Assembly: GCA_964202455.1 (NCBI GenBank)
Contig: CAXNIJ010000003.1
Location: 43,352 to 107,351, forward strand
Reading direction: 5' to 3'
DNA from: Candidatus Pacearchaeota archaeon
GTDB lineage: Archaea; Nanobdellota; Nanobdellia; Pacearchaeales; GW2011-AR1
DNA length: 64,000 bases
Numbering within the stretch: position 1 is the stretch's first letter; every line of letters begins with the position of its first letter. Of this stretch, positions 10,133 through 59,100 are shown in pieces. Both the position numbers and the translations under genes were made by a program. The notes under the pieces are model-generated. The model saw only the letters and a list, made by a program, of their open reading frames with translations, was not told where the DNA came from and made no database searches.

Positions 10133-11049
10133 TAGACATCATCATTACTTCTTACAACGAACCAAAATCCACTTTAAATGTAGTTAAGTCTTTTTTAAAA
10201 CAGACAAAAAGAAAAGATATGAGGGTAACTGTAGTTGATCCATTTCAAAGCGTAGAAGCATTCTTAAAAAAACATATCAAAGATCCCCGTTTTATGTTTT
10301 ATCCTGATCCAGGAGAAGGAAAAAGTTACGCATTAAATCTATTATTTGAAGAATATTCTTCTTCAAACACAGATGATTTTTTTATTTTAACCGACGGAGA
10401 CGTGATCGTTTCAGATAATGCCGTGAAAGCAATCGAAATTGCATTCGAAGAGCAAAATATTGGTTGCGTTACGGGAAAACCTGTAGCTCTGGATGACATA
10501 AACACAAAATATGGATTTTGGGCACACGTTGCATTTAAAGGTATAGATCGAGTAAGAACAGAGTTATTCAAGAAGAGAAAATTTTTTGAGTGTTCAGGTT
10601 ACCTCTTCGCCATTAGAAAAGGAGTCATTAAAGAATTTCCTCTGGAGGCTAGCGAAGATAGTATAATTCCTTACTTATTTTGGAAAAAGGGATATGGAGT
10701 TGCATATGCGCCACAAGTAGAAGTAATGGTAAAAAATCCTTCAACATGGAAAGATTGGATCGCTCAAAAAATAAGAAACATCAAAGGTCATGAAACACTA
10801 AACTCTCTAGCTCAAGATATGCCTCGCACAAAATCGTTCTGGAATGAAGTTAAATGGGGTGCATTTTTTGCATTGCGGCAACCGCGCACGATTAAACAAT
10901 TCTGGTGGACACTCGAACTCTTTGCGGCGCGGTTATATTTATATTTTAAAGCGTTTAAGGAATTGCGCAAGAAAGATAAGTATCAGGATGGATGGAGAGG
11001 ACAAGCAACAACCGAGTCAACGCGTATTGACTCGCAGTTGTACACCTAG
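10129..11049 (+). CDS. glycosyltransferase family 2
   Basis: 306 aa. Motifs: IDIIITSYNEPKST, ILTDGD, EDS. Confidence 0.7.
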   Translation: MIDIIITSYNEPKSTLNVVKSFLKQTKRKDMRVTVVDPFQSVEAFLKKHIKDPRFMFYPDPGEGKSYALNLLFEEYSSSNTDDFFILTDGDVIVSDNAVKAIEIAFEEQNIGCVTGKPVALDDINTKYGFWAHVAFKGIDRVRTELFKKRKFFECSGYLFAIRKGVIKEFPLEASEDSIIPYLFWKKGYGVAYAPQVEVMVKNPSTWKDWIAQKIRNIKGHETLNSLAQDMPRTKSFWNEVKWGAFFALRQPRTIKQFWWTLELFAARLYLYFKAFKELRKKDKYQDGWRGQATTESTRIDSQLYT

Positions 11050-16915: not shown

Positions 16916-17917
16916 ATGAAAAATCCATTAGTAAGTTTCATCTTAGGTATTCTAGATGCAGAAAGAACTATCAAAGAATGTCTTGAAGGAATTCTTATGC
17001 AGGACTACAAAAATTACGAAATCATCATTGTCGATGGAGGCTCTAAAGATAAAACTCTTGAAATAGTCAAGAGTTTTATGAGATCCCATAAAAATATTAA
17101 ACTCCTGCACAATTCTAAAAAACTCTCTGAGGGAAAAGGAATGAGCAAAGATATGGGCGTACAATCTGCAAAAGGAGATATAGTAATATTTTTAGACCAT
17201 GATAATATACTCTTAGATAAAAATTGGCTTAAGGAAATGCTATTTCCATTTGAAGAAGATAAAGAAATAATGGCGACACAGTCTTTATTAAAATTTAGAG
17301 AAAGCGATTCACAGTTTCTTAAATACATAAATGCAATGGGGGTAGAAGACCCATTTGCAGTTCCATATTCCCTTGTTTCTCAAGTAGTTTTGTATCCAAA
17401 AAATTTCGAGCTAATTAAAGATAGATATTACATTCACAATCTTAATAAAAATAAAGTACTCTTCGCAGGAGCAAATGGGGCAGCATTTAAAAAAATTGTC
17501 TTTAAAAAAATAGGGGGATATACTAGAGACGTAGATGTCTACGCGAGTATGGCTTCATTTAGTATGAAAGTCGCAGTAGTAAAAAATGCCAAACTATATC
17601 ATGCAACTTCTAGTAATCTATGGACTTATCTCAAGAAAAAAGGAATCTATTTCCATCGTTTTATAGATGGAGAATATGCAACAAAGCAATTTCAATGGAT
17701 TCCCACAGACTTCTCAGGAAAACTACGCTTTTATCTCATGGTCGCTTCAAATCTGAGTATCTTTCCAGCTTCAATTGTAGCAATAAGACAGTTTTTCAAA
17801 ACTGGTCGCTTATTCTGGTTTATTCATCCAGGAGCTTTGTTCTTTATGACTCTAGAATACGGTCTAATCACACTTATGCGTTTTAGAAACTTCTTAGATT
17901 ATGGAAAGAAAAATTAA
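16916..17917 (+). CDS. glycosyltransferase family 2
   Basis: 333 aa. It has IIIVDGGSKDKT, FLDHDN and C-terminal TM segments. Confidence 0.7.
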   Translation: MKNPLVSFILGILDAERTIKECLEGILMQDYKNYEIIIVDGGSKDKTLEIVKSFMRSHKNIKLLHNSKKLSEGKGMSKDMGVQSAKGDIVIFLDHDNILLDKNWLKEMLFPFEEDKEIMATQSLLKFRESDSQFLKYINAMGVEDPFAVPYSLVSQVVLYPKNFELIKDRYYIHNLNKNKVLFAGANGAAFKKIVFKKIGGYTRDVDVYASMASFSMKVAVVKNAKLYHATSSNLWTYLKKKGIYFHRFIDGEYATKQFQWIPTDFSGKLRFYLMVASNLSIFPASIVAIRQFFKTGRLFWFIHPGALFFMTLEYGLITLMRFRNFLDYGKKN

Positions 17918-23051: not shown

Positions 23052-23073
23052 GTCAAGTAACTTGAAACTTGAC
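23052..23073. terminator. GTCAAGT/ACTTGAC hairpin between convergent genes
   Basis: 7-bp perfect stem (23052-23058 / 23067-23073) on the same CTTGAC core as the intergenic hairpin family. Confidence 0.35.
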
Positions 23074-28595: not shown

Positions 28596-28768
28596 GTCAG
28601 TGTCACAAAACCCTCTGGTTTTGACCTCGGCTTTTAAGCCGAGGCTTGTTTGTGGTTTTGCGGCCGCCGGAGAAATCTGCAGCAAAAGAACCGCGGAATA
28701 AATCCTCAAAGACAAAGTCTTTGACGGTCGTCAAGAACTCTGTTCTTGAGATCCGAGGATTTCTACGA
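28596..28768. ncRNA. GC-enriched structured element A (hairpin-chain family), class unknown
   Basis: Perfect hairpins: CCTCGGC/GCCGAGG (28625-28644), TCAAAGAC/GTCTTTGA (28706-28724) and TCAAGAAC/GTTCTTGA (28731-28749). A closing AAATCCTC/GAGGATTT pair is at 28700-28707 / 28755-28762. GGTTTTG occurs twice and either copy can pair with CAAAACC. Confidence 0.4.
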
Positions 28769-36967: not shown

Positions 36968-36973
36968 GAAATC

Positions 36974-37222
36974 TCATCGTTCATAAATATGCTGGCGATG
37001 TCCAACCTTAAGAATAGTTATAAGCTCTTTCTCAATGGAAAAAATAATTCTATAATCTCCTACTCGTAAACGGCATTCAGAAGAACCTTTAAGTTTCTTA
37101 ATATCTTTAACAAAAGGATCTACCTGCATTTCTTCAACCGTTTTAATTATTTTTCTTGCAACAGTAATATCTAGCTTATGAAGATTTCTAAGTGAATTTT
37201 CTTTCCATTCTATATTAAACAT
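36974..37222 (-). CDS. RelE/ParE family toxin
   Basis: 82 aa. LRVGDYRIIFSIEKELITILKVGHRQHIYE is the typical RelE/ParE C-terminal block. Confidence 0.75.
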   Translation of the reverse strand: MFNIEWKENSLRNLHKLDITVARKIIKTVEEMQVDPFVKDIKKLKGSSECRLRVGDYRIIFSIEKELITILKVGHRQHIYER

Positions 37223-37232
37223 TCAAACTTTC

Positions 37233-37439
37233 CTAAAGTCCAAACTTTTTTTTAACTTCATTATGGGAGAGACTCTTTTCCTTCTTTGATTCTTCAATTT
37301 CTTTTCTAGTTTCTTCATTAAGTATAAGTTCATCTTCAAGCATTCGTTCAAGAATTTCATTGTAAGACTCTCTAGAAAAGAGCTTCATCTTCTCTAGTTT
37401 TTGTTGTACTTCATCGGATACTTGAATAGTGGTTGACAT
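37233..37439 (-). CDS. antitoxin (small acidic protein upstream of RelE-like toxin)
   Basis: 68 aa. It lies 10 nt upstream of the toxin, is charged and helical, and has a typical TA arrangement. Confidence 0.55.
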   Translation of the reverse strand: MSTTIQVSDEVQQKLEKMKLFSRESYNEILERMLEDELILNEETRKEIEESKKEKSLSHNEVKKKFGL

Positions 37440-37494
37440 TATAGATGATTATAACAAGCTATAGTATAAATATCTTTCGGTTATATCGCGAATT

Positions 37495-37709
37495 AGGAAG
37501 ACCGAGAGAACTATTGGTTCTCGAGTGTATCCAAGAATCAAATATTCTTGACGAAACTACACTCCTTCAAGAATTTTCAATCGTCAAAAATCGCTGATTT
37601 TTGATCGCACTCAAGAATACGAAGAATGGGTATTCTTGATGTCTTGACTGCCGTCAAGGACAGAAGTCCTTGAAGTTTAAGCCACAGTGGCGCATCGTTT
37701 TCTTGATTC
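37495..37709. repeat. hairpin-chain element B (TCAAG...CTTGA family)
   Basis: Perfect hairpins at 37506-37522, 37532-37550, 37584-37604, 37611-37639, 37643-37658 and 37654-37673. The twin hairpins at 37584-37639 are separated by the 6-nt linker TCGCAC. The 35-nt module at 37675-37709 is shared with element D. Confidence 0.5.
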
Positions 37710-37711
37710 AA

Positions 37712-38071
37712 TTATATTTGTATCTTAATCTGCAAGGTATCTATGATTAATATTGGTTTCAATCTCTGTCTTTTTCCAGTCTTTTCAGAGACAAACTCTA
37801 TAAATCCAAATCTTTCAAGAAGCTTTAGGTCACCATATACTGCTTTAAAATCGCGCCCTAAAATTTTAGCTAAACTATAAACTGAAGAGGGTTTTTTAGT
37901 TTTAAGCATGTGTAAAATTCTTGCTTTTTCATTGCTCAATAGTTTACGAAAAGCCGCAATGCCCTCAAAGTCATAAGCTTCTCTTTCTCCGCTAAATTTT
38001 TTAAAAAAAGTAGCGAAAGTTCCACCTTCATCTGTAATTGTTATTTCTCTAGTCTTTGTTTTCGTCGACAT
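37712..38071 (-). CDS. winged-helix DNA-binding protein (putative transcriptional regulator)
   Basis: 119 aa. ARILHMLKTKKPSSVYSLAKILGRDFKAVYGDLKLLERFGFIEF is wHTH-like. Confidence 0.5.
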   Translation of the reverse strand: MSTKTKTREITITDEGGTFATFFKKFSGEREAYDFEGIAAFRKLLSNEKARILHMLKTKKPSSVYSLAKILGRDFKAVYGDLKLLERFGFIEFVSEKTGKRQRLKPILIIDTLQIKIQI

Positions 38072-38493
38072 TTTGGTTATTATAGGTTATTTTATTACCC
38101 ATATCTAAGTAATATAATTAGTATATATATGTTTCGTTTATCTATATATGTTAAAATAAAACATATATTTTACTAAGAGTATAAAAAATGTCACAAATTC
38201 AAGTATATTTCTAGAGAGTAGTACCAAAAGCTTTAAATACTCATAGCAGAGTTAATAAAACGCTCAATGTAATTTCTGCAAGATAAGAGAAAGCTTTTTA
38301 AAGCGTAACTTCATCATGATTATGCTCTTATTGTTTCAATAAGGGCGCTGGCCAAGATGATTTATCTTAGGATATTTCAAATCTTTGTCAGAGCAACATG
38401 CTCGACACGGCCAAGGCGGGTTGTTTATCAACCTCCCCTCAGGGGAATCTACGGATTGCCAAGATAGATAGTTGAAAGGAGGTATAAAAAAAA

Positions 38494-41268
38494 ATGATAA
38501 ATTTTAGAAAAATTGTATCGGTGTTGACAAGCGCAGCAATGCTTGGCTCAACAGTCGCATTGGCAACAGCAGCTAGTTATCCACAACCTTTCGTAAAGAA
38601 TGGTATGGCTGATGTAGCTGTCGTTTATGGTTCAACTGCCCTAGGCACAACAGATATTGTTGCCGCTATGGACATTAACAATAAGTTGACAACGCAATTG
38701 TTGAAAGAAGCTATTGTAAAGCCAAGTAGTTCAACAAGTTCAGTCACAACAACTGGAGGAGATTCGATTTCTCTTGCAGGAACTAATAGCATTTATGCTT
38801 ATAGTAGTCTTAATTCTGGTCGGACTTCATTGACCGATAATCAATTAAGTACACTCCTCGCAGGAGGATCAGCAACAGATGCATCTGGAACGAAATATGG
38901 ATTCACACAAAGCATAGTTCCGGGAAATACTCAATTAACTTTCGGAAATAGCCAGAGTGAAGCTATTGATCCTTCTCCTATGATTCAAATAGGAACAAAT
39001 CCAGATGTAGCTGATAGTACTGGTTCAGGTCCAATCTTTAACTATACACTTTCATTTACCAAATCCATCAACGTTTCTGATTCTACAAACGTTCAAGGAT
39101 ATTCTTCGATTAAAATTCTCGGAAGAGAATATATTGTCGGAGCAAGTTCTTCCGGAACAGATCTATATCTCTACGGAAGTGGTCAAAGCGCAAGTGTTGA
39201 AGAAGGAGAAACCAAGACAGTAACATTCAAAGATAAAGAACACACAATTTCTTTGAAAGGAACTTCTTCATCAACAGCAGCTACAGTAATAGTTGATGGT
39301 GTATCCAAGGCAGTGAATAAGGGAGCGAGTTATTCCTTCCCAGGAGACTTTAATATTTATATTAAAGATCTATTCCATGCTACCAAAACTGGAACATTAT
39401 CTAACGCACAATTGTTGCTCGGAGCAGACACCATTCATCTCGTGAATAATTCACAAGTGAAATATGGTGTAGATGATACTACTGTACAAAATACAAGATC
39501 AGTTATCTCAAGTAATGGAAATGCAGTAAGTAAAATTGTCATATCTCAAGCTTCTAAAGATAGCACAAGAGACTATATATTGGCAGGAGAGTCATTTACG
39601 GATAGAGTATTTGGAGGTGTAAAAATAAATTTTGCATCTTTAGACCCTAGCCTAAACTCTTCTTCAAGACAGAATCTCGTTATTGATACTGACAATTCAG
39701 TCTCTGCAAGGATTCTTGTTGATACTGCTCTTAATGGTAAGAAGAAAAATGGAGATGCAGTTACTCCAGCCGCAATCACGTTCGCACGTGATGGAGACGG
39801 TATTTCGGACACTGCATTAAAATTTGTAAATCTTACTAGAAGTAGTACTGCAAAAATATCGAATGCAGAAGGCCAAAATATTACTGTAAACGATTGGGTT
39901 ATGGTAAATGCTGGAGACAACGGACGTATTCTCGAATTAACCTCTGTAGGTGCAGGAACATCCGCAACAGATAAAACTGTTTTCAAGGATATCTGGACTG
40001 GAGATGAATTTGAGTTTACAACTGGAGTTACTAATGGTACTTCAAATACTATTGATGCTGCAACATATTATGTTGCTACGACTGCAACCGGAGGTAATGG
40101 GCGATCTGCAAATATTACCTGGGGACCAGGAGCAACAGTAGGAAGCTTTGGTACACAAAGAACAGTTTTCCCACGAATCAAATTGAAGAATGGAGGATGG
40201 TTTACCATTCTAAGTTCTTTCGTCTTTAACAACCAGACTGCATATTCTCTACCTGGAGTTGACTCACTTTCAGGATATGAAAGTGGATCAGCACTATCGC
40301 ATAACTCGACGGCAAACGCCTCGTTTAATACGTTATCTGGGAAAGTGAATTATACAGTTAATTGGAAAGGTCAAATTGGAAACGTTTTAGGATATACAAA
40401 TCCAATGTTTTTGGCTAGCAATTATAGCGTAGACATTCCAGGTGCTGGAAGTTATTCACTTGGTGAATTGAACAATGTCACAATTGGAGGATCAAATTGC
40501 GATCTTAACAGAACAGCAATTCTCTTCCAAGAACCTAAAACGACAGTTGGTTCAGGAAGCACAAATGGAGACGTATTTTGCATTCCAATTACAACAGAGG
40601 GAACAACTACAGTTATGCCTTCAATAGGCACACCTGTTTCTTCAGATAATAATGTTACAACTCTAGTATCATTGAACTCAGTAAACACTAAGTCCCAGGG
40701 TCTCTCGACCTTCGGCACCTTAGTAGAGTTAGATAGTACTCAGAATAATATTGTTAAATTGTCGAGCCCATCAAGTCAGATGGTTGCAACTATTTTAGTT
40801 GCAGCTCCTTCAACCACTGTAACAGGTGGTTCAAGCAGTTCTGAAAGTTCTGGAGCAACAACTGTAACTACTGTGATGACCGTAATGGACTCAGAAGTTG
40901 CGAGTGTTTCTACAAAGAACTTGATTGTTGTTGGTGGAAGCTGTATCAATACCGTCGCAGCCAAATTGTTAGGAAGCACAACGCCACTATGTGGTGCTGA
41001 CTTCATGGCAAAGTCTGGCGCAGGCGCAGGATCTTATGTCTTGCAGTCATTTGACAGTCCTTATACGACTGGAAAAGTCGCTACACTTGTAGCTGGCTAT
41101 AATGCTGCTGACACAACAAGCGGAGTCAAATTCTTAACTACCCAGGCAAACGTTGATGTTTCCCCAGGTAAGAAGTATTTGAACGGCGCAGTTGTAGATA
41201 CTACTGCTACTTTGAAGTCGACAACGACTACAACGGCAAATACAACGGCAAATACAATGGCTAAGTAA
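38494..41268 (+). CDS. S-layer (glyco)protein candidate
   Basis: 924 aa. It has a signal peptide (SAAMLGSTVALATAA), is Ser/Thr/Asn-rich with many N-x-S/T sequons, and has a C-terminal NLIVVGGSCINTVAAKLLG block like archaeal S-layer C-domains. GGAGG lies upstream, and a strong hairpin terminator lies downstream. Confidence 0.7.
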   Translation: MINFRKIVSVLTSAAMLGSTVALATAASYPQPFVKNGMADVAVVYGSTALGTTDIVAAMDINNKLTTQLLKEAIVKPSSSTSSVTTTGGDSISLAGTNSIYAYSSLNSGRTSLTDNQLSTLLAGGSATDASGTKYGFTQSIVPGNTQLTFGNSQSEAIDPSPMIQIGTNPDVADSTGSGPIFNYTLSFTKSINVSDSTNVQGYSSIKILGREYIVGASSSGTDLYLYGSGQSASVEEGETKTVTFKDKEHTISLKGTSSSTAATVIVDGVSKAVNKGASYSFPGDFNIYIKDLFHATKTGTLSNAQLLLGADTIHLVNNSQVKYGVDDTTVQNTRSVISSNGNAVSKIVISQASKDSTRDYILAGESFTDRVFGGVKINFASLDPSLNSSSRQNLVIDTDNSVSARILVDTALNGKKKNGDAVTPAAITFARDGDGISDTALKFVNLTRSSTAKISNAEGQNITVNDWVMVNAGDNGRILELTSVGAGTSATDKTVFKDIWTGDEFEFTTGVTNGTSNTIDAATYYVATTATGGNGRSANITWGPGATVGSFGTQRTVFPRIKLKNGGWFTILSSFVFNNQTAYSLPGVDSLSGYESGSALSHNSTANASFNTLSGKVNYTVNWKGQIGNVLGYTNPMFLASNYSVDIPGAGSYSLGELNNVTIGGSNCDLNRTAILFQEPKTTVGSGSTNGDVFCIPITTEGTTTVMPSIGTPVSSDNNVTTLVSLNSVNTKSQGLSTFGTLVELDSTQNNIVKLSSPSSQMVATILVAAPSTTVTGGSSSSESSGATTVTTVMTVMDSEVASVSTKNLIVVGGSCINTVAAKLLGSTTPLCGADFMAKSGAGAGSYVLQSFDSPYTTGKVATLVAGYNAADTTSGVKFLTTQANVDVSPGKKYLNGAVVDTTATLKSTTTTTANTTANTMAK

Positions 41269-41280
41269 AGTAACAAATAA

Positions 41281-41340
41281 TTTATTTTTATTTTTATTTT
41301 TTTATTTTCTAAGGGGGGCTTCGCGCCCCCCTATAATTTT
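41281..41340 (+). terminator. T-tracts plus GC hairpin terminator of the S-layer gene
   Basis: GGGGGGC-ttcgc-GCCCCCC forms a 7-bp all-GC stem (41313-41331) flanked by long T-runs. Confidence 0.6.
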
Positions 41341-42060: not shown

Positions 42061-42190
42061 GGTATTCTCTAGGCAGATATACTGCCTTCGCAGAATCTCT
42101 AGCGCGTTCAAGAATCATCAAGAATCTTTGTTCTTGAGTGCTCTCAAGAATAAGAAGATATTCTCGAGTTATTAAAAATGAATTCTTGAC
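42061..42190. repeat. hairpin-chain element C (TCAAG...CTTGA family, more degenerate)
   Basis: AGGCAG/CTGCCT hairpin at 42070-42086. Tandem TCAAGAATC x2 at 42107-42125. TCAAGAA/TTCTTGA at 42117-42136, then the 6-nt linker GTGCTC, then TCAAGAAT/ATTCTCGA at 42143-42166 (7 of 8 pairs). Confidence 0.35.
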
Positions 42191-47071: not shown

Positions 47072-47100
47072 CTCTTTGAACTAGTAAATGTTCTACTCTC

Positions 47101-47130
47101 AGAGAAGTTTAAGCCTTTGCAAACTTATCT
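47101..47130. repeat. conserved stem-loop AGAGAAGTTT-loop-AAACTTATCT (copy 1 of 3)
   Basis: 9 of 10 stem pairs. The loop AAGCCTTTGC is shared with copies at 52601-52680 and 55801-55830. It lies between convergent genes. Confidence 0.45.
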
Positions 47131-48000: not shown

Positions 48001-48134
48001 TCTGCTTTAATTTTCACAATCTGCATTCTAGGTTTATAAAATATTTTAGATCCGCAGTGAGGACAAACAAATCTTTTCTCAAGAACTTTACTGCTTATAG
48101 GTTTACTACATTTGAAACATTTATATTGTGCCAT
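47997..48134 (-). CDS. rpoP: DNA-directed RNA polymerase subunit P (Rpo12/RPABC4)
   Basis: Own translation (below the track cutoff): MAQYKCFKCSKPISSKVLEKRFVCPHCGSKIFYKPRMQIVKIKAE. It is 45 aa with a CxxC...CxxC zinc ribbon. Its TGA overlaps the pfdB ATG. Confidence 0.8.
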   Translation of the reverse strand: MAQYKCFKCSKPISSKVLEKRFVCPHCGSKIFYKPRMQIVKIKAE

Positions 48135-48178
48135 AAGTATTCGTGATTTTGAAGATTTTTAAACCTGTTGGTAGGTCA

Positions 48179-48466
48179 TTATGTTGCAGGACGATAGTCA
48201 TATAAGCGTATAAACTCGGATAGTCCCAGAGAAATATGCGCACTCTTAGTGCAAAGTTCTACGCGAAATTGATAATTAATTTTCGCTTTATCGAATGCTT
48301 CAACTTCTCGCCATAATCTAGGATCAACTAAGTTTTATCTTTCAACTGGAGAATTGGGATTTATTAGAATTAGTCGCGGAAATTGAAGTTCTACCCTTCC
48401 AACAGCACTAGAAACCTCTAAAGAAGTATCAAGAAGTTCACGTATACGCAAAAATTCAATTTTCAT
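48179..48466 (-). pseudogene. 96-codon frame interrupted by one in-frame TAA (unknown small protein)
   Basis: Own translation: MKIEFLRIRELLDTSLEVSSAVGRVELQFPRLILINPNSPVER-TAA(48335-48337)-NLVDPRLWREVEAFDKAKINYQFRVELCTKSAHISLGLSEFIRLYDYRPAT. The second part has no ATG/GTG/TTG start. Confidence 0.35.
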
Positions 48467-48525
48467 AATAAGGTTATTTTTAACTCATTTAAAAAGATAT
48501 ATGCAAGAGAAAATATAGAGGAAGA

Positions 48526-49290: not shown

Positions 49291-49330
49291 AACTATTATT
49301 TCTTTGTTCTATTTAAAATGATTATGGTGT

Positions 49331-49479
49331 TCAAGAAATCAAAACTTAGAGAATATTCTATTCTCGATAGCACTCAAGGACTCACGTCTTTGAGGCTGAG
49401 AAAAACTATGTGTTTCGAGGCGCTCAGAAACTTTTAGTTTCTGACGTTTAAGCAGTGGTGGCGCGTCGTTTTTTCGATT
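49331..49479. repeat. hairpin-chain element D (TCAAG...CTTGA family)
   Basis: GAGAATA/TATTCTC at 49349-49365, then the 8-nt linker GATAGCAC, then TCAAGGAC/GTCTTTGA at 49374-49393 (one G-T pair). CAGAAAC/GTTTCTG at 49424-49442. The 35-nt module at 49445-49479 matches element B at 28 of 35 positions. Confidence 0.5.
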
Positions 49480-49513
49480 CTAGATTAAAAGATTGACTTT
49501 TGACGCAAAACCG

Positions 49514-52600: not shown

Positions 52601-52680
52601 AGAGAAATTTAGGCTCATCAAAAACCTAGTTTTTTAGTGCCGTCAATAATTTTTGATTCTTGAGGTTTGCAAATTTCTCT
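52601..52680. repeat. conserved stem-loop AGAGAAATTT...AAATTTCTCT (copy 2 of 3, expanded loop)
   Basis: 10-bp perfect stem (52601-52610 / 52671-52680) enclosing a 60-nt loop that starts AGGC and ends GGTTTGC. The G-C pair of the other copies is replaced by A-T. Confidence 0.45.
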
Positions 52681-52701
52681 AAAGGCCGGATAAAATTTTT
52701 C

Positions 52702-53130: not shown

Positions 53131-53204
53131 TTTTTTTAATAGATACCTTTATTTTTAAAGTCTCTGGATGAAACGGGTTTCACTTATTATCTGAATGAAT
53201 AGAA

Positions 53205-53395
53205 CGCCCACGCCCCGAGTCGAACGGGGAAATCCCGGAGGAAAGCGGTTTACTTGTCTCCTGACGAAGGGAGGTTGACCGTCAAGGCTTCAAGGATTTA
53301 CAATCCTTGACAGCACTCAAGAACCTCAAGGTTCTTGGTGAACCGTAGGTTTCTTACGTCTCAAGACCGCCGGAGTACCGTTGTCCCACGTGGGC
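53205..53395 (-). tRNA. tRNA-Ser (anticodon UGA) with ~109-nt intron in the anticodon loop (approx. 53250-53359)
   Basis: Minus-strand read: acceptor GCCCACG/CGTGGGC, discriminator G, 3-bp D stem GGA/TCC, anticodon stem GCGGT/ACCGC, loop CTTGAGA, 15-nt variable arm, T arm CCCCG-TTCGACT-CGGGG. CUUG (32-35) can pair with CAAG just before the 3' splice site, flanked by the 3-nt bulges AGA and UAA. Confidence 0.85.
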
Positions 53396-53441
53396 ATAGA
53401 ATAATTATATAAAAAGCACTTATAAATGTACCTCTGCTCGT

Positions 53442-55599: not shown

Positions 55600-55800
55600 G
55601 TTTTTTTGTCTTCTACAGTATGATCTCTGTGTTCAGAAAACGAACATGAAGATATGTAGTTATCGACATTCTTCTTGAGAATTGGACGTTTTTAAATGTT
55701 TTTATCCTTGAATTTCTTCAATACTGGGTGAGTTCATCTATATTTTTTTGAGAAGTTTGAATAATTCCGAATCTGTGAAGAATTTTCAAAGTTCTTGTTA

Positions 55801-55830
55801 GAGAAGTTTAGGCTTTTGCAAACTTCTCTT
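55801..55830. repeat. conserved stem-loop AGAGAAGTTT-loop-AAACTTCTCT (copy 3 of 3)
   Basis: 10-bp perfect stem with loop AGGCTTTTGC. It lies in the 344-nt divergent spacer between rpl1 and the GT2-TPR gene. Confidence 0.45.
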
Positions 55831-59046: not shown

Positions 59047-59100
59047 TTAACTTGACATCACAAATTAACTAGTCAAGTTAATAATGTCAAGGAACTTGAC
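59047..59100. repeat. CTTGAC/GTCAAG hairpin pair between clpP-like and ftsZ
   Basis: TTAACTTGAC/GTCAAGTTAA forms a 10-bp stem (59047-59081). GTCAAG-gaa-CTTGAC is at 59086-59100. Confidence 0.35.

Follow-up and report, generated by a model that had tools for sequence, protein, structure and literature searches.

The intergenic stretch at positions 37495-37709 of a 64-kb window of archaeal DNA (the window being the whole stretch that was analysed) raises the question of what kind of element a chain of perfect hairpins between two genes might be. A sequence-only reading had described six consecutive perfect hairpins at 37506-37673, the last two overlapping, together with similar hairpin pairs elsewhere in the window. 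It had likened them to repetitive extragenic palindromes (REPs) or bacterial interspersed mosaic elements (BIMEs), to a family like the miniature transposable elements with inverted repeats known as MITEs, or to a reused structured RNA module. All six hairpins are present, but they are better read, from their alignment with related sequences, as three twin-hairpin (TH) modules, one of which is nested in another. The hairpin chains are probably built from copies of a mobile DNA element that is small, non-autonomous and similar to REPs and palindrome-associated transposable elements (PATEs), and we infer that it moves as single-stranded DNA.

The window is AT-rich and gene-dense, with a G+C content of 33-34%. 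Judged by its genes, its host is a DPANN archaeon of the Pacearchaeota/Nanoarchaeia type, because archaeal markers are encoded (AglB/STT3, an S-layer protein, Spt5/NusG, FtsZ, SepF and SMC) and because a helix-turn-helix (HTH) regulator at 37712-38071 has its nearest homologues in sequences labelled Pacearchaeota, Nanoarchaeota or Nanoarchaeia. Ribosomal proteins L1, L10, P1, L11 and L37ae are encoded as well. For comparison, one genome per prokaryotic species was scanned with the pattern TTGA-N1-5-GCAC-TCAAGRA-N3-20-TYCTTGA, which gave at least 110 loci, and a covariance model, R1, was built from 31 DPANN loci with a full twin hairpin. A metagenome search with a 670-aa neighbour protein gave no match, and orthologous loci were then sought with an alignment of the regulator. 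The closest relative is represented by L001-L003 (collected loci are cited by L numbers), with a regulator identity of 81% and, for the genes of L001, a nucleotide identity of about 80%, a divergence too great for base-exact boundaries of the window insertions. L195 is a relative sharing VKOR at 76% identity, and 531 kb of orthologous loci from 80 relatives formed an unselected control set.

Form and distribution of the twin-hairpin module

The TH module reads 5'-C N [TCAAG..CTTGA] NNGCAC [TCAAG..CTTGA] TG-3' and is 48-60 nt long, about 55 nt being usual; its fuller consensus in DPANN loci is aAC-n-[TCAAGRAY..RTYCTTGA]-nn-GCAC-[TCAAGAAY..RTTCTTGA]-TG. Single hairpins measure 19-29 nt. Only 2 nt separate hairpin 1 from the 5' end and hairpin 2 from the 3' end, and the module ends, C-N-TCAAGRA and TYCTTGA-N-G, are inverted repeats. 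Every copy is intergenic or intronic, as had been claimed.

Within the chain, module B occupies 37582-37641 on the plus strand as CG-TCAAAAATC/GATTTTTGA-TCGCAC-TCAAGAATAC/GTATTCTTGA-TG and scores 59.5 bits with R1 (E 2e-11; model extent 37580-37643). It sits in the 3' arm of hairpin 2 of module C, on the opposite strand. Module C is the older copy (37566-37673, minus strand), with hairpin 1 at 37654-37673 (TCAAGGAC/GTCCTTGA), a linker CGGCAG that is a degenerate GGCAC, and hairpin 2 arms at 37566-37574 and 37642-37648 split by module B. The overlapping, mutually exclusive folds of the chain follow from this nesting. The uninterrupted form of the module B site, TCAAGAATTTTCAAT^TCTTGAGTGCC (joined flanks TTTTCAAT^TCTTGA), is found in L005 and L049, the filled/empty comparison for module C being that with L005. 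Module A adjoins modules B and C as a diverged minus-strand twin, which the sequence-only reading had missed, at 37500-37553 (TCAAGAAT/ATTCTTGG - ATACAC - TCGAGAAC/GTTCTCTCGG; 31.2 bits, E 5e-5, model extent 37498-37555). The minus strand of the chain, module C included, aligns with composite units of about 250 nt in other metagenome-assembled genomes (MAGs), here termed type (b), which start ATCAAAAACACGATGCGCC..GGCTTAAAC. The corresponding head in the window (TTGAATCAAGAAAACGATGCGCCACTGTGGCTTAAAC, 37674-37711, minus strand) begins a few bases past the stop codon of the HTH regulator and aligns with ATCAAAAACACGATGCGCCACC..GGCTTAAAC of L005, L036, L061, L070 and L096.

The other twin arrangements reported at 28706-28749, 42117-42166, 49349-49393 and 53290-53338 were all recovered, with linkers CGGTCG, GTGCTC (on the plus strand), GATAGCAC and CAGCAC, respectively. 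The minus-strand module at 42116-42169 (57.5 bits; model extent 42114-42171) is nested in an older TCAAGAAT/ATTCTTGA hairpin with arms at 42107-42115 and 42183-42190, and the spacer holding it measures 217 nt in the window against 62 nt in the orthologous spacer of L001. A diverged plus-strand module with an 8-nt linker at 49345-49395 (42.6 bits; model extent 49343-49397) lies within a type (b)-like minus-strand unit at 49291-49513 with the head GAATCGAAAAAACGACGCGCCACCACTGCTTAAAC. The plus-strand module at 53288-53340 (58.7 bits; model extent 53286-53342) lies antisense in the intron of a tRNA-Ser(UGA) gene. The copy at 28704-28750 is present but has no GCAC and is weak and diverged, with an ambiguous strand (29.2 bits on plus, 28.1 on minus; model extent 28702-28752). 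Absent from the earlier list was a minus-strand module at 52616-52665 (41.8 bits; model extent 52614-52667) that occupies the loop of a hairpin, AGAGAAATTTGCAAA^AGCCTAAATTTCTCT. Window copies share only the core among themselves. All seven lie between 28 and 54 kb, and none falls in positions 1-28000, a glycosylation and sugar-nucleotide cluster (GT2, GT4, GT9, PMT_2, AglB, dTDP-rhamnose genes and asparagine synthase).

That AT-rich intergenic sequence would yield such palindromes by chance is close to negligible as an explanation. A strict scan (stem of at least 7 bp, loop 3-10) finds 7 perfect TCAAR..YTTGA hairpins in the window against 0.48 +/- 0.69 (maximum 4) in 500 dinucleotide shuffles, and 2 perfect twins against 0 in each of the 500; the shuffled control proposed with the sequence-only reading thus leaves window hairpins and twins far above background. 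Although a loose scan (stem of at least 6 bp) narrows the contrast to 16 against 6.7, which is what can be said for chance, R1 E-values of the window copies run from 2e-11 to 1e-4 and the same motif recurs in dozens of related genomes.

At least 29 DPANN MAGs, counted at species level, carry the TH in strongly conserved form, and the proposed search of related MAGs with a covariance model did return further copies. About half of the pattern loci are DPANN, and among the matches listed a full twin hairpin surrounds the match only in DPANN loci, where copies score 55-74 bits, as compared with at most 29.7 bits for 55 bacterial loci from the same pattern. About 80 copies were counted in 58 loci, and the window holds 7 per 64 kb. 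The unselected orthologous loci gave only about nine weak-to-moderate R1 matches, and 2.9 million viral contigs gave none. In the 20 kb of L001-L003 neither GCACTCAAG nor a perfect TCAAR-type hairpin with a stem of 7 bp or more occurs; the sole R1 match in this closest relative is weak (L001 1221-1300, 31.7 bits), and the copy at 42116-42169 is absent from it, as is the chain. L195 has no TH match. The TH is shown by these comparisons to be confined to certain DPANN genomes of the Pacearchaeota/Woesearchaeota type and to be patchy there.

Hairpin 1 lay outside the constraint of the search pattern, yet double changes occur in 5 of its 9 pairs and 98% of its cells are paired, as against 30-55% in slid controls; the hairpins are therefore maintained. 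Such covariation, with invariant unpaired tags, is also what would be seen if the TH were a functional structured RNA (a cis-regulator, mRNA stabiliser, terminator or part of a small RNA), reused and kept by selection on RNA structure. This explanation is judged unlikely. It draws further support from a core that is conserved across many species while the flanks differ, from outer stems that enclose the TH like a three-way junction (z = -9.5 for the L005 unit), from one-sided changes in the seed set that are mostly G.U on the GCAC strand (7 vs 2), and from a high-scoring coding-strand copy between rps17 and rpl14 in a ribosomal protein operon (L105 6192-6246; gaps 18 and 27 nt). Over 71 distinct copies, however, no strand asymmetry is seen, either in folding energy (mean difference -0.27 kcal/mol; Wilcoxon p = 0.50) or in G.U pairs (82 vs 70). 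Copies occur in both gene orientations: the GCAC strand runs with co-directional neighbour genes in 23 cases and against them in 14 in other genomes, whereas the four main window copies, including the one in the tRNA intron, are all antisense on that strand. The rule that copies oriented by GTGC are co-directional with their flanking genes accordingly holds for those four but fails at 37498-37555 and 52614-52667 and, given the opposite trend elsewhere, is not general. A patchy distribution with close relatives lacking the TH, exact insertion or absence in many contexts, and paralogues with flipped loops also speak against an RNA. In Rfam, at gathering and permissive thresholds, only a tRNA-Pro reached its gathering score, and no match with E <= 10 lay over the copies in 28400-54200. 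The structured RNA module of the sequence-only reading is hence not favoured.

Three RNA-like candidates were set aside, the first two by eye: CTTGATGA as a K-turn or C/D box has no D box and its G.A position is unmet, cores of the hammerhead and other small ribozymes are absent, and type (a) composite units, read as split or permuted tRNAs, contain only a repeat like a tRNA 3' end.

The flipped loops just mentioned are seen in paralogous units of one MAG that are alike except that hairpin centres are reverse-complemented. Between L017 4592-4650 and L090 3827-3885 the flip affects both hairpins, a centre of 12 nt among them, and between L036 5542-5591 and L061 5570-5619 it affects hairpin 2; plain-reverse and complement-only controls gave no such pairs. 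Flips of this kind would be expected of DNA palindromes, through arm-to-arm exchange or template switching, and not of RNA selection. The lack of strand asymmetry, the two orientations and the loop flips together favour an element that acts at the level of DNA.

Filled and empty sites

Mobility was examined by joining the 11 nt on each side of a module, taken from 2 nt before hairpin 1 to the end of the TG after hairpin 2, and searching for the junction in the window and the collected loci. Contiguous empty versions were found in at least nine unrelated contexts, and their extended flanks align. The junction AGTTCGTGAGA^AAGAAAAAACA is filled in L031 and empty in L119, with flank identities of 38/45 and 33/45 around a clean 52-nt insert. 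Within one MAG, CACGGCTTAAA^AGCCGTGG is filled in L036 and L070 and empty in L061 and L096; AATCCTTAGGA^TTAAGTAATCG is filled in many loci and empty in L027; and AAGTTTGCAAA^AGCCTAAACTT is filled in L051 and at window positions 52616-52665 and empty at window positions 55800-55829 and 47095-47130. At every filled/empty pair the joined flanks equal the empty site base for base, so there is no target-site duplication. Copies in the same genome share 93-100% identity over 100-230 nt with unrelated flanks. These exact filled and empty sites show that the TH has moved.

The 5' flank shows a preference for A-R-A, with A at -1 in 27 and A at -3 in 26 of 37 non-redundant contexts. The window also contains an empty type (b) host hairpin at 28625-28644 on the minus strand, CCTCGGCTTAAA^AGCCGAGG, in which L005 and L017 carry a TH at the caret. 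The empty minus-strand site at 55800-55829 is, by comparison within the window, another occurrence of the hairpin in which the TH at 52616-52665 lies. It belongs to a second repeat family, a hairpin AGAGAAGTTT-GCAAAAGCCT-AAACTTCTCT at three intergenic window sites (55800-55829, 47095-47130 and 52601-52701), of which the last hosts a TH; a related copy of that hairpin occurs in L051.

The locus of the chain differs from that of the closest relative by more than the chain. A toxin-antitoxin pair precedes it at 36974-37439 on the minus strand, with a DUF7557/VapB-like antitoxin at 37233-37439 and a ParE toxin at 36974-37222 (Pfam), and pair and chain form a block of about 740 bp (36968-37711) between two convergent genes. 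In L001-L003 the regulator is followed directly by the convergent gene, without chain or ParE pair, and in L001 the two convergent genes overlap by 4 nt (10357-10360).

Cassettes, a tRNA intron and the enzyme in question

The joint presence or absence of chain and ParE cassette raises the alternative that the TH is a site-specific recombination site of the att or attC kind, in which the arms RTTCTTGA / TCAAGAAY and the 6-bp spacer NNGCAC would form a tyrosine-recombinase core at which cassettes are exchanged. The layout, 8-bp inverted arms around a fixed asymmetric 6-bp spacer, is that of a recombinase core. Neighbours of copies are often toxin-antitoxin components (MazEF, ParE, PIN, MNT, Fic); type (a) units form direct repeats around MazEF cassettes (L018, L097) or stand after tRNA-Arg(GCG), whose 3' end they repeat (L032, L093), and single cassettes with one element are about 92% identical between species in which their flanks are unrelated (L083/L097, L088/L097). 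The explanation is nevertheless quite improbable. It is the tRNA-like repeat GGGGNGTTWATCC.., and not the twin hairpin, with which cassette limits coincide; the majority of copies stand alone and well away from cassettes, the neighbouring genes include no integrase, the two halves of the attC signature RYYYAAC/GTTRRRY do not occur together, and a 55-bp double-stranded circle would be an implausible recombination partner.

The repeat itself, GGGGNGTTWATCC(T)TAGGA, is a direct repeat of about 20-30 nt that separates small cassettes (MazEF, AAA_14/DUF4143 ATPase, MNT) and resembles the 3' end and trailer of tRNA-Arg(GCG). It was located at L018 4699-5546, L097 4449-6571, L083 3796-4515, L027 (minus) 115-200, L032 7333-7500 and L093 (minus) 380-660. 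These cassettes look like tandem site-specific integration at tRNA-Arg(GCG), with no integrase seen there. The repeat occurs with and without a TH (upstream site of L083, empty site of L027); the cassettes are therefore regarded here as a separate, integrase-like phenomenon, and the TH has inserted there too.

Composite units of type (c), of about 170-230 nt, have terminal inverted repeats ATGTCAAGAA / TTCTTGACAT with a TH inside (L031 2220-2392, L034 1225-1452, L109 7009-7199, L102 1680-1887). No long gene-bearing version of them was found, nor any long autonomous element bounded by TGTCAAGAA / TTCTTGACA: across about 1.2 Mb of DPANN loci, the sequence between paired element ends never exceeds 228 nt. 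The solitary GTCAAG/CTTGAC hairpins that had been reported at 23052-23073 and 59047-59100 are indeed in the sequence and resemble the ends of type (c) units, yet R1 does not pick them up.

AAA_14/DUF4143 ATPase genes number 7 in the element-selected DPANN loci (L097 5270-6520, L088 391-1650, L061 4226-5440, three genes in L108, and L044 5737-7200) against 0 in about 550 kb of unselected loci. Four of the 7 lie within 600 nt of a twin hairpin, and the family is absent from the window. A TH-flanked protein (L051 4794-5534) has no noteworthy Pfam or PDB relative.

The tRNA gene that carries a TH extends over 53205-53395 on the minus strand, with exon 1 at 53360-53395, an intron of 109 nt at 53251-53359 and exon 2 at 53205-53250. 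It escaped default ARAGORN and Rfam scans, and ARAGORN with introns allowed (-i) placed a tRNA at 53204-53396, minus strand, labelled Thr(tgt). It is assigned to tRNA-Ser(UGA) because of its acceptor stem (GCCCACG/CGTGGGC), its long variable arm, the canonical bulge-helix-bulge of its intron at 37/38 (GCGGU-CUUG-AGA ... CAAG-UAA-ACCGC) and the intron-less orthologue adjoining VKOR in L195, a tRNA-Ser(tga) whose anticodon stem shows a compensatory change. A homologous intron without a TH is present in the tRNA-Ser(gct) of L061, and the TH therefore entered a pre-existing tRNA intron.

This position, together with the lack of target duplication, would also fit a mobile archaeal mini-intron spread through splicing endonuclease and ligase followed by reverse transcription. 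In type (b), moreover, the TH lies in an anticodon-arm-like hairpin (GGC-UUAAA^..^A-GCC) at the 37/38 intron place, where UUAA and UUGA can be drawn as a 4-bp helix that has 3-nt bulges. Yet the cuts predicted from that bulge-helix-bulge miss the type (b) boundary by one base on the 5' side, none can be drawn for type (a), and by hand the boundaries of types (a) and (b) cannot both fall in 3-nt bulges 4 bp apart. The splice motif of the tRNA-Ser is formed by intron sequence outside the antisense TH, and insertion in both orientations argues against spread at the RNA level. A mini-intron is thus very improbable.

The window has further features of note. A perfect 13-bp hairpin ATAAAACTCTTGA / TCAAGAGTTTTAT at 17049-17079, within a glycosyltransferase gene (16916-17917), carries the words CTTGA/TCAAG in opposite order. 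A G+C-rich, terminator-like hairpin, AGGGGGGC-TTCGC-GCCCCCCT, lies at 41312-41332, just 3' of the S-layer gene (38494-41268). Stretches free of open reading frames (ORFs; at least 50 aa) occur at 48001-48525 (525 nt) and 38072-38493 (422 nt), neither with an Rfam match; the latter is AT-rich, has ATATAT palindromes and lies upstream of the S-layer gene.

Double-strand recombination at the GCAC spacer, RNA function and intron-like spread each fit fewer facts than a mobile element does. As a mobile element, the TH would move as single-stranded DNA folded into its two hairpins. An enzyme acting in trans would cut and rejoin it, recognising TCAAG/CTTGA at the hairpin feet as well as the asymmetric tags (C-N at the 5' end, GCAC in the linker and TG at the 3' end), in a manner resembling, by functional analogy only, the handling of hairpin ends by TnpA of IS200/IS605 and by REP-associated tyrosine transposases (RAYTs). 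Stems that are perfect and yet differ between copies may be kept by the need for recognition or by palindrome correction during replication, and loop flips may reflect hairpin or cruciform dynamics in DNA. It is nesting in older copies that makes the chains.

Several points weigh against a mobile element of this kind. In IS608-type ends the left cut site is about 19 nt from the hairpin, whereas TH cut sites would be 2 nt from the hairpin feet, so the geometry differs. Pfam searches found no Y1/HUH transposase, integrase or other recombinase domain in any window ORF, nor among about 40 genes that in other loci adjoin copies or lie between them, and, the AAA_14/DUF4143 ATPase apart, copies have no recurrent protein family in their vicinity. 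The transposase that the sequence-only reading had proposed to look for was likewise not found, there being no RAYT-like gene in the 64-kb window or in the 58 element-bearing loci, which cover part of each genome. The target motif is loose (A-R-A) and not a fixed tetranucleotide, with T at -1 in 5 of 37 contexts (T^T), and insertion into hairpin loops is not above control positions in a crude test (14/37 vs 53/142). Precise absence could in principle be precise deletion instead of an empty target, and the strong conservation of the core over many species could mean a host function.

More tentatively, DPANN archaea whose genomes are very small may host a REP-RAYT-like system of their own, in which an unrecognised enzyme, not necessarily a Y1 HUH protein, moves or has domesticated a 55-nt twin-hairpin element of single-strand DNA that could found tRNA introns and accompany toxin-antitoxin cassettes; we hold this to be possible though doubtful. 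If true, it would be the first persistent hairpin replicator of that kind outside Bacteria and would provide a handle on a new activity that cuts and joins DNA and whose minimal substrate is defined. Little repetitive DNA is usually attributed to reduced DPANN genomes, and the TH is present in many uncultivated Pacearchaeota/Woesearchaeota lineages. With its exact ends, dozens of natural filled and empty sites, and a minimal substrate of two hairpins and three short tags, the TH can serve as bait for finding the enzyme that moves it. The TH also marks variable regions that hold toxin-antitoxin cassettes and confuses annotation, as in the overlooked tRNA-Ser gene, and nested insertion alone can build long hairpin chains resembling structured RNAs.

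The twin hairpin among known palindromic elements

No description of the TH was found in the literature. REPs, the REPINs formed from them and BIMEs resemble it in being short intergenic palindromes with a conserved tag at the hairpin foot and mixed-orientation clusters (PMC3733652, PMC2817692, PMC3116915), and also in insertion into target palindromes, in copy number that varies between relatives and in persistence over many species. A REP has its tag by the hairpin, with GTAG (or CGTC) at one end of the palindrome, and sometimes lies inside target palindromes (PMC3733652). REPs are bacterial, mobilised by RAYTs and present as a single REP or an inverted REPIN pair, whereas the TH is archaeal and consists of two direct hairpins with a fixed 6-nt linker and tags C-N / GCAC / TG. 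Because it has no GTAG or CGTC tag and no RAYT was found in the sequence covered, the TH falls outside the REP family by its definition.

Integron attC sites are likewise structured and palindromic and stand at the 3' end of small cassettes, often of toxin-antitoxin genes, and single cassettes are shared between genomes in both cases. The TH lacks the RYYYAAC/GTTRRRY pair, a lone GTTAAGT without inverse partner being present 3' of type (a) copies; no integron integrase is found among its neighbours, and the cassette borders lie at the tRNA-Arg-like direct repeat. With archaeal bulge-helix-bulge introns, in one of which a TH resides, it shares duplication-free insertion, but its boundaries form no splice motif and it is antisense cargo.

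DDE-type MITEs make target-site duplications. Classical MITEs such as Correia, ERIC and the Sulfolobus SM elements are, like the TH, small, multi-copy, intergenic, non-autonomous and able to form foldback structures, and their terminal inverted repeats are matched by the TH ends and by type (c) units. The TH is far shorter than typical MITEs, and it is not a classical MITE because no filled/empty pair shows a target-site duplication. Of the kinship with REP/BIME or MITE families that had been suggested, a multi-copy, intergenic, palindromic element that has moved therefore stands, but by definition it is neither REP nor classical MITE. A survey of MITEs lists one Woesearchaeal genome with 105 MITEs per Mb, the elements themselves not being described (PMC11602168).

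The elements of the IS200/IS605 group end in hairpins and lack inverted terminal repeats; they integrate 3' of a short motif, without duplication (PMC7290912). PATEs, which derive from them, share with the TH a hairpin at each end, the absence of target duplication, a short preferred 5' sequence and a non-autonomous nature. The TH differs in its length of about 55 nt, as compared with about 270 nt for the PATE example (PMC7290912), and in having cut sites 2 nt from the hairpin feet, near-identical inverted-repeat ends and a loose target motif; no parent element with tnpA or tnpB was found in the parts of the genomes covered. Overall, the TH is rated as REP/PATE-like palindromic mobile DNA that is new for archaea, here the DPANN group, and unusual in its size, its twin-hairpin design and its clean boundaries.

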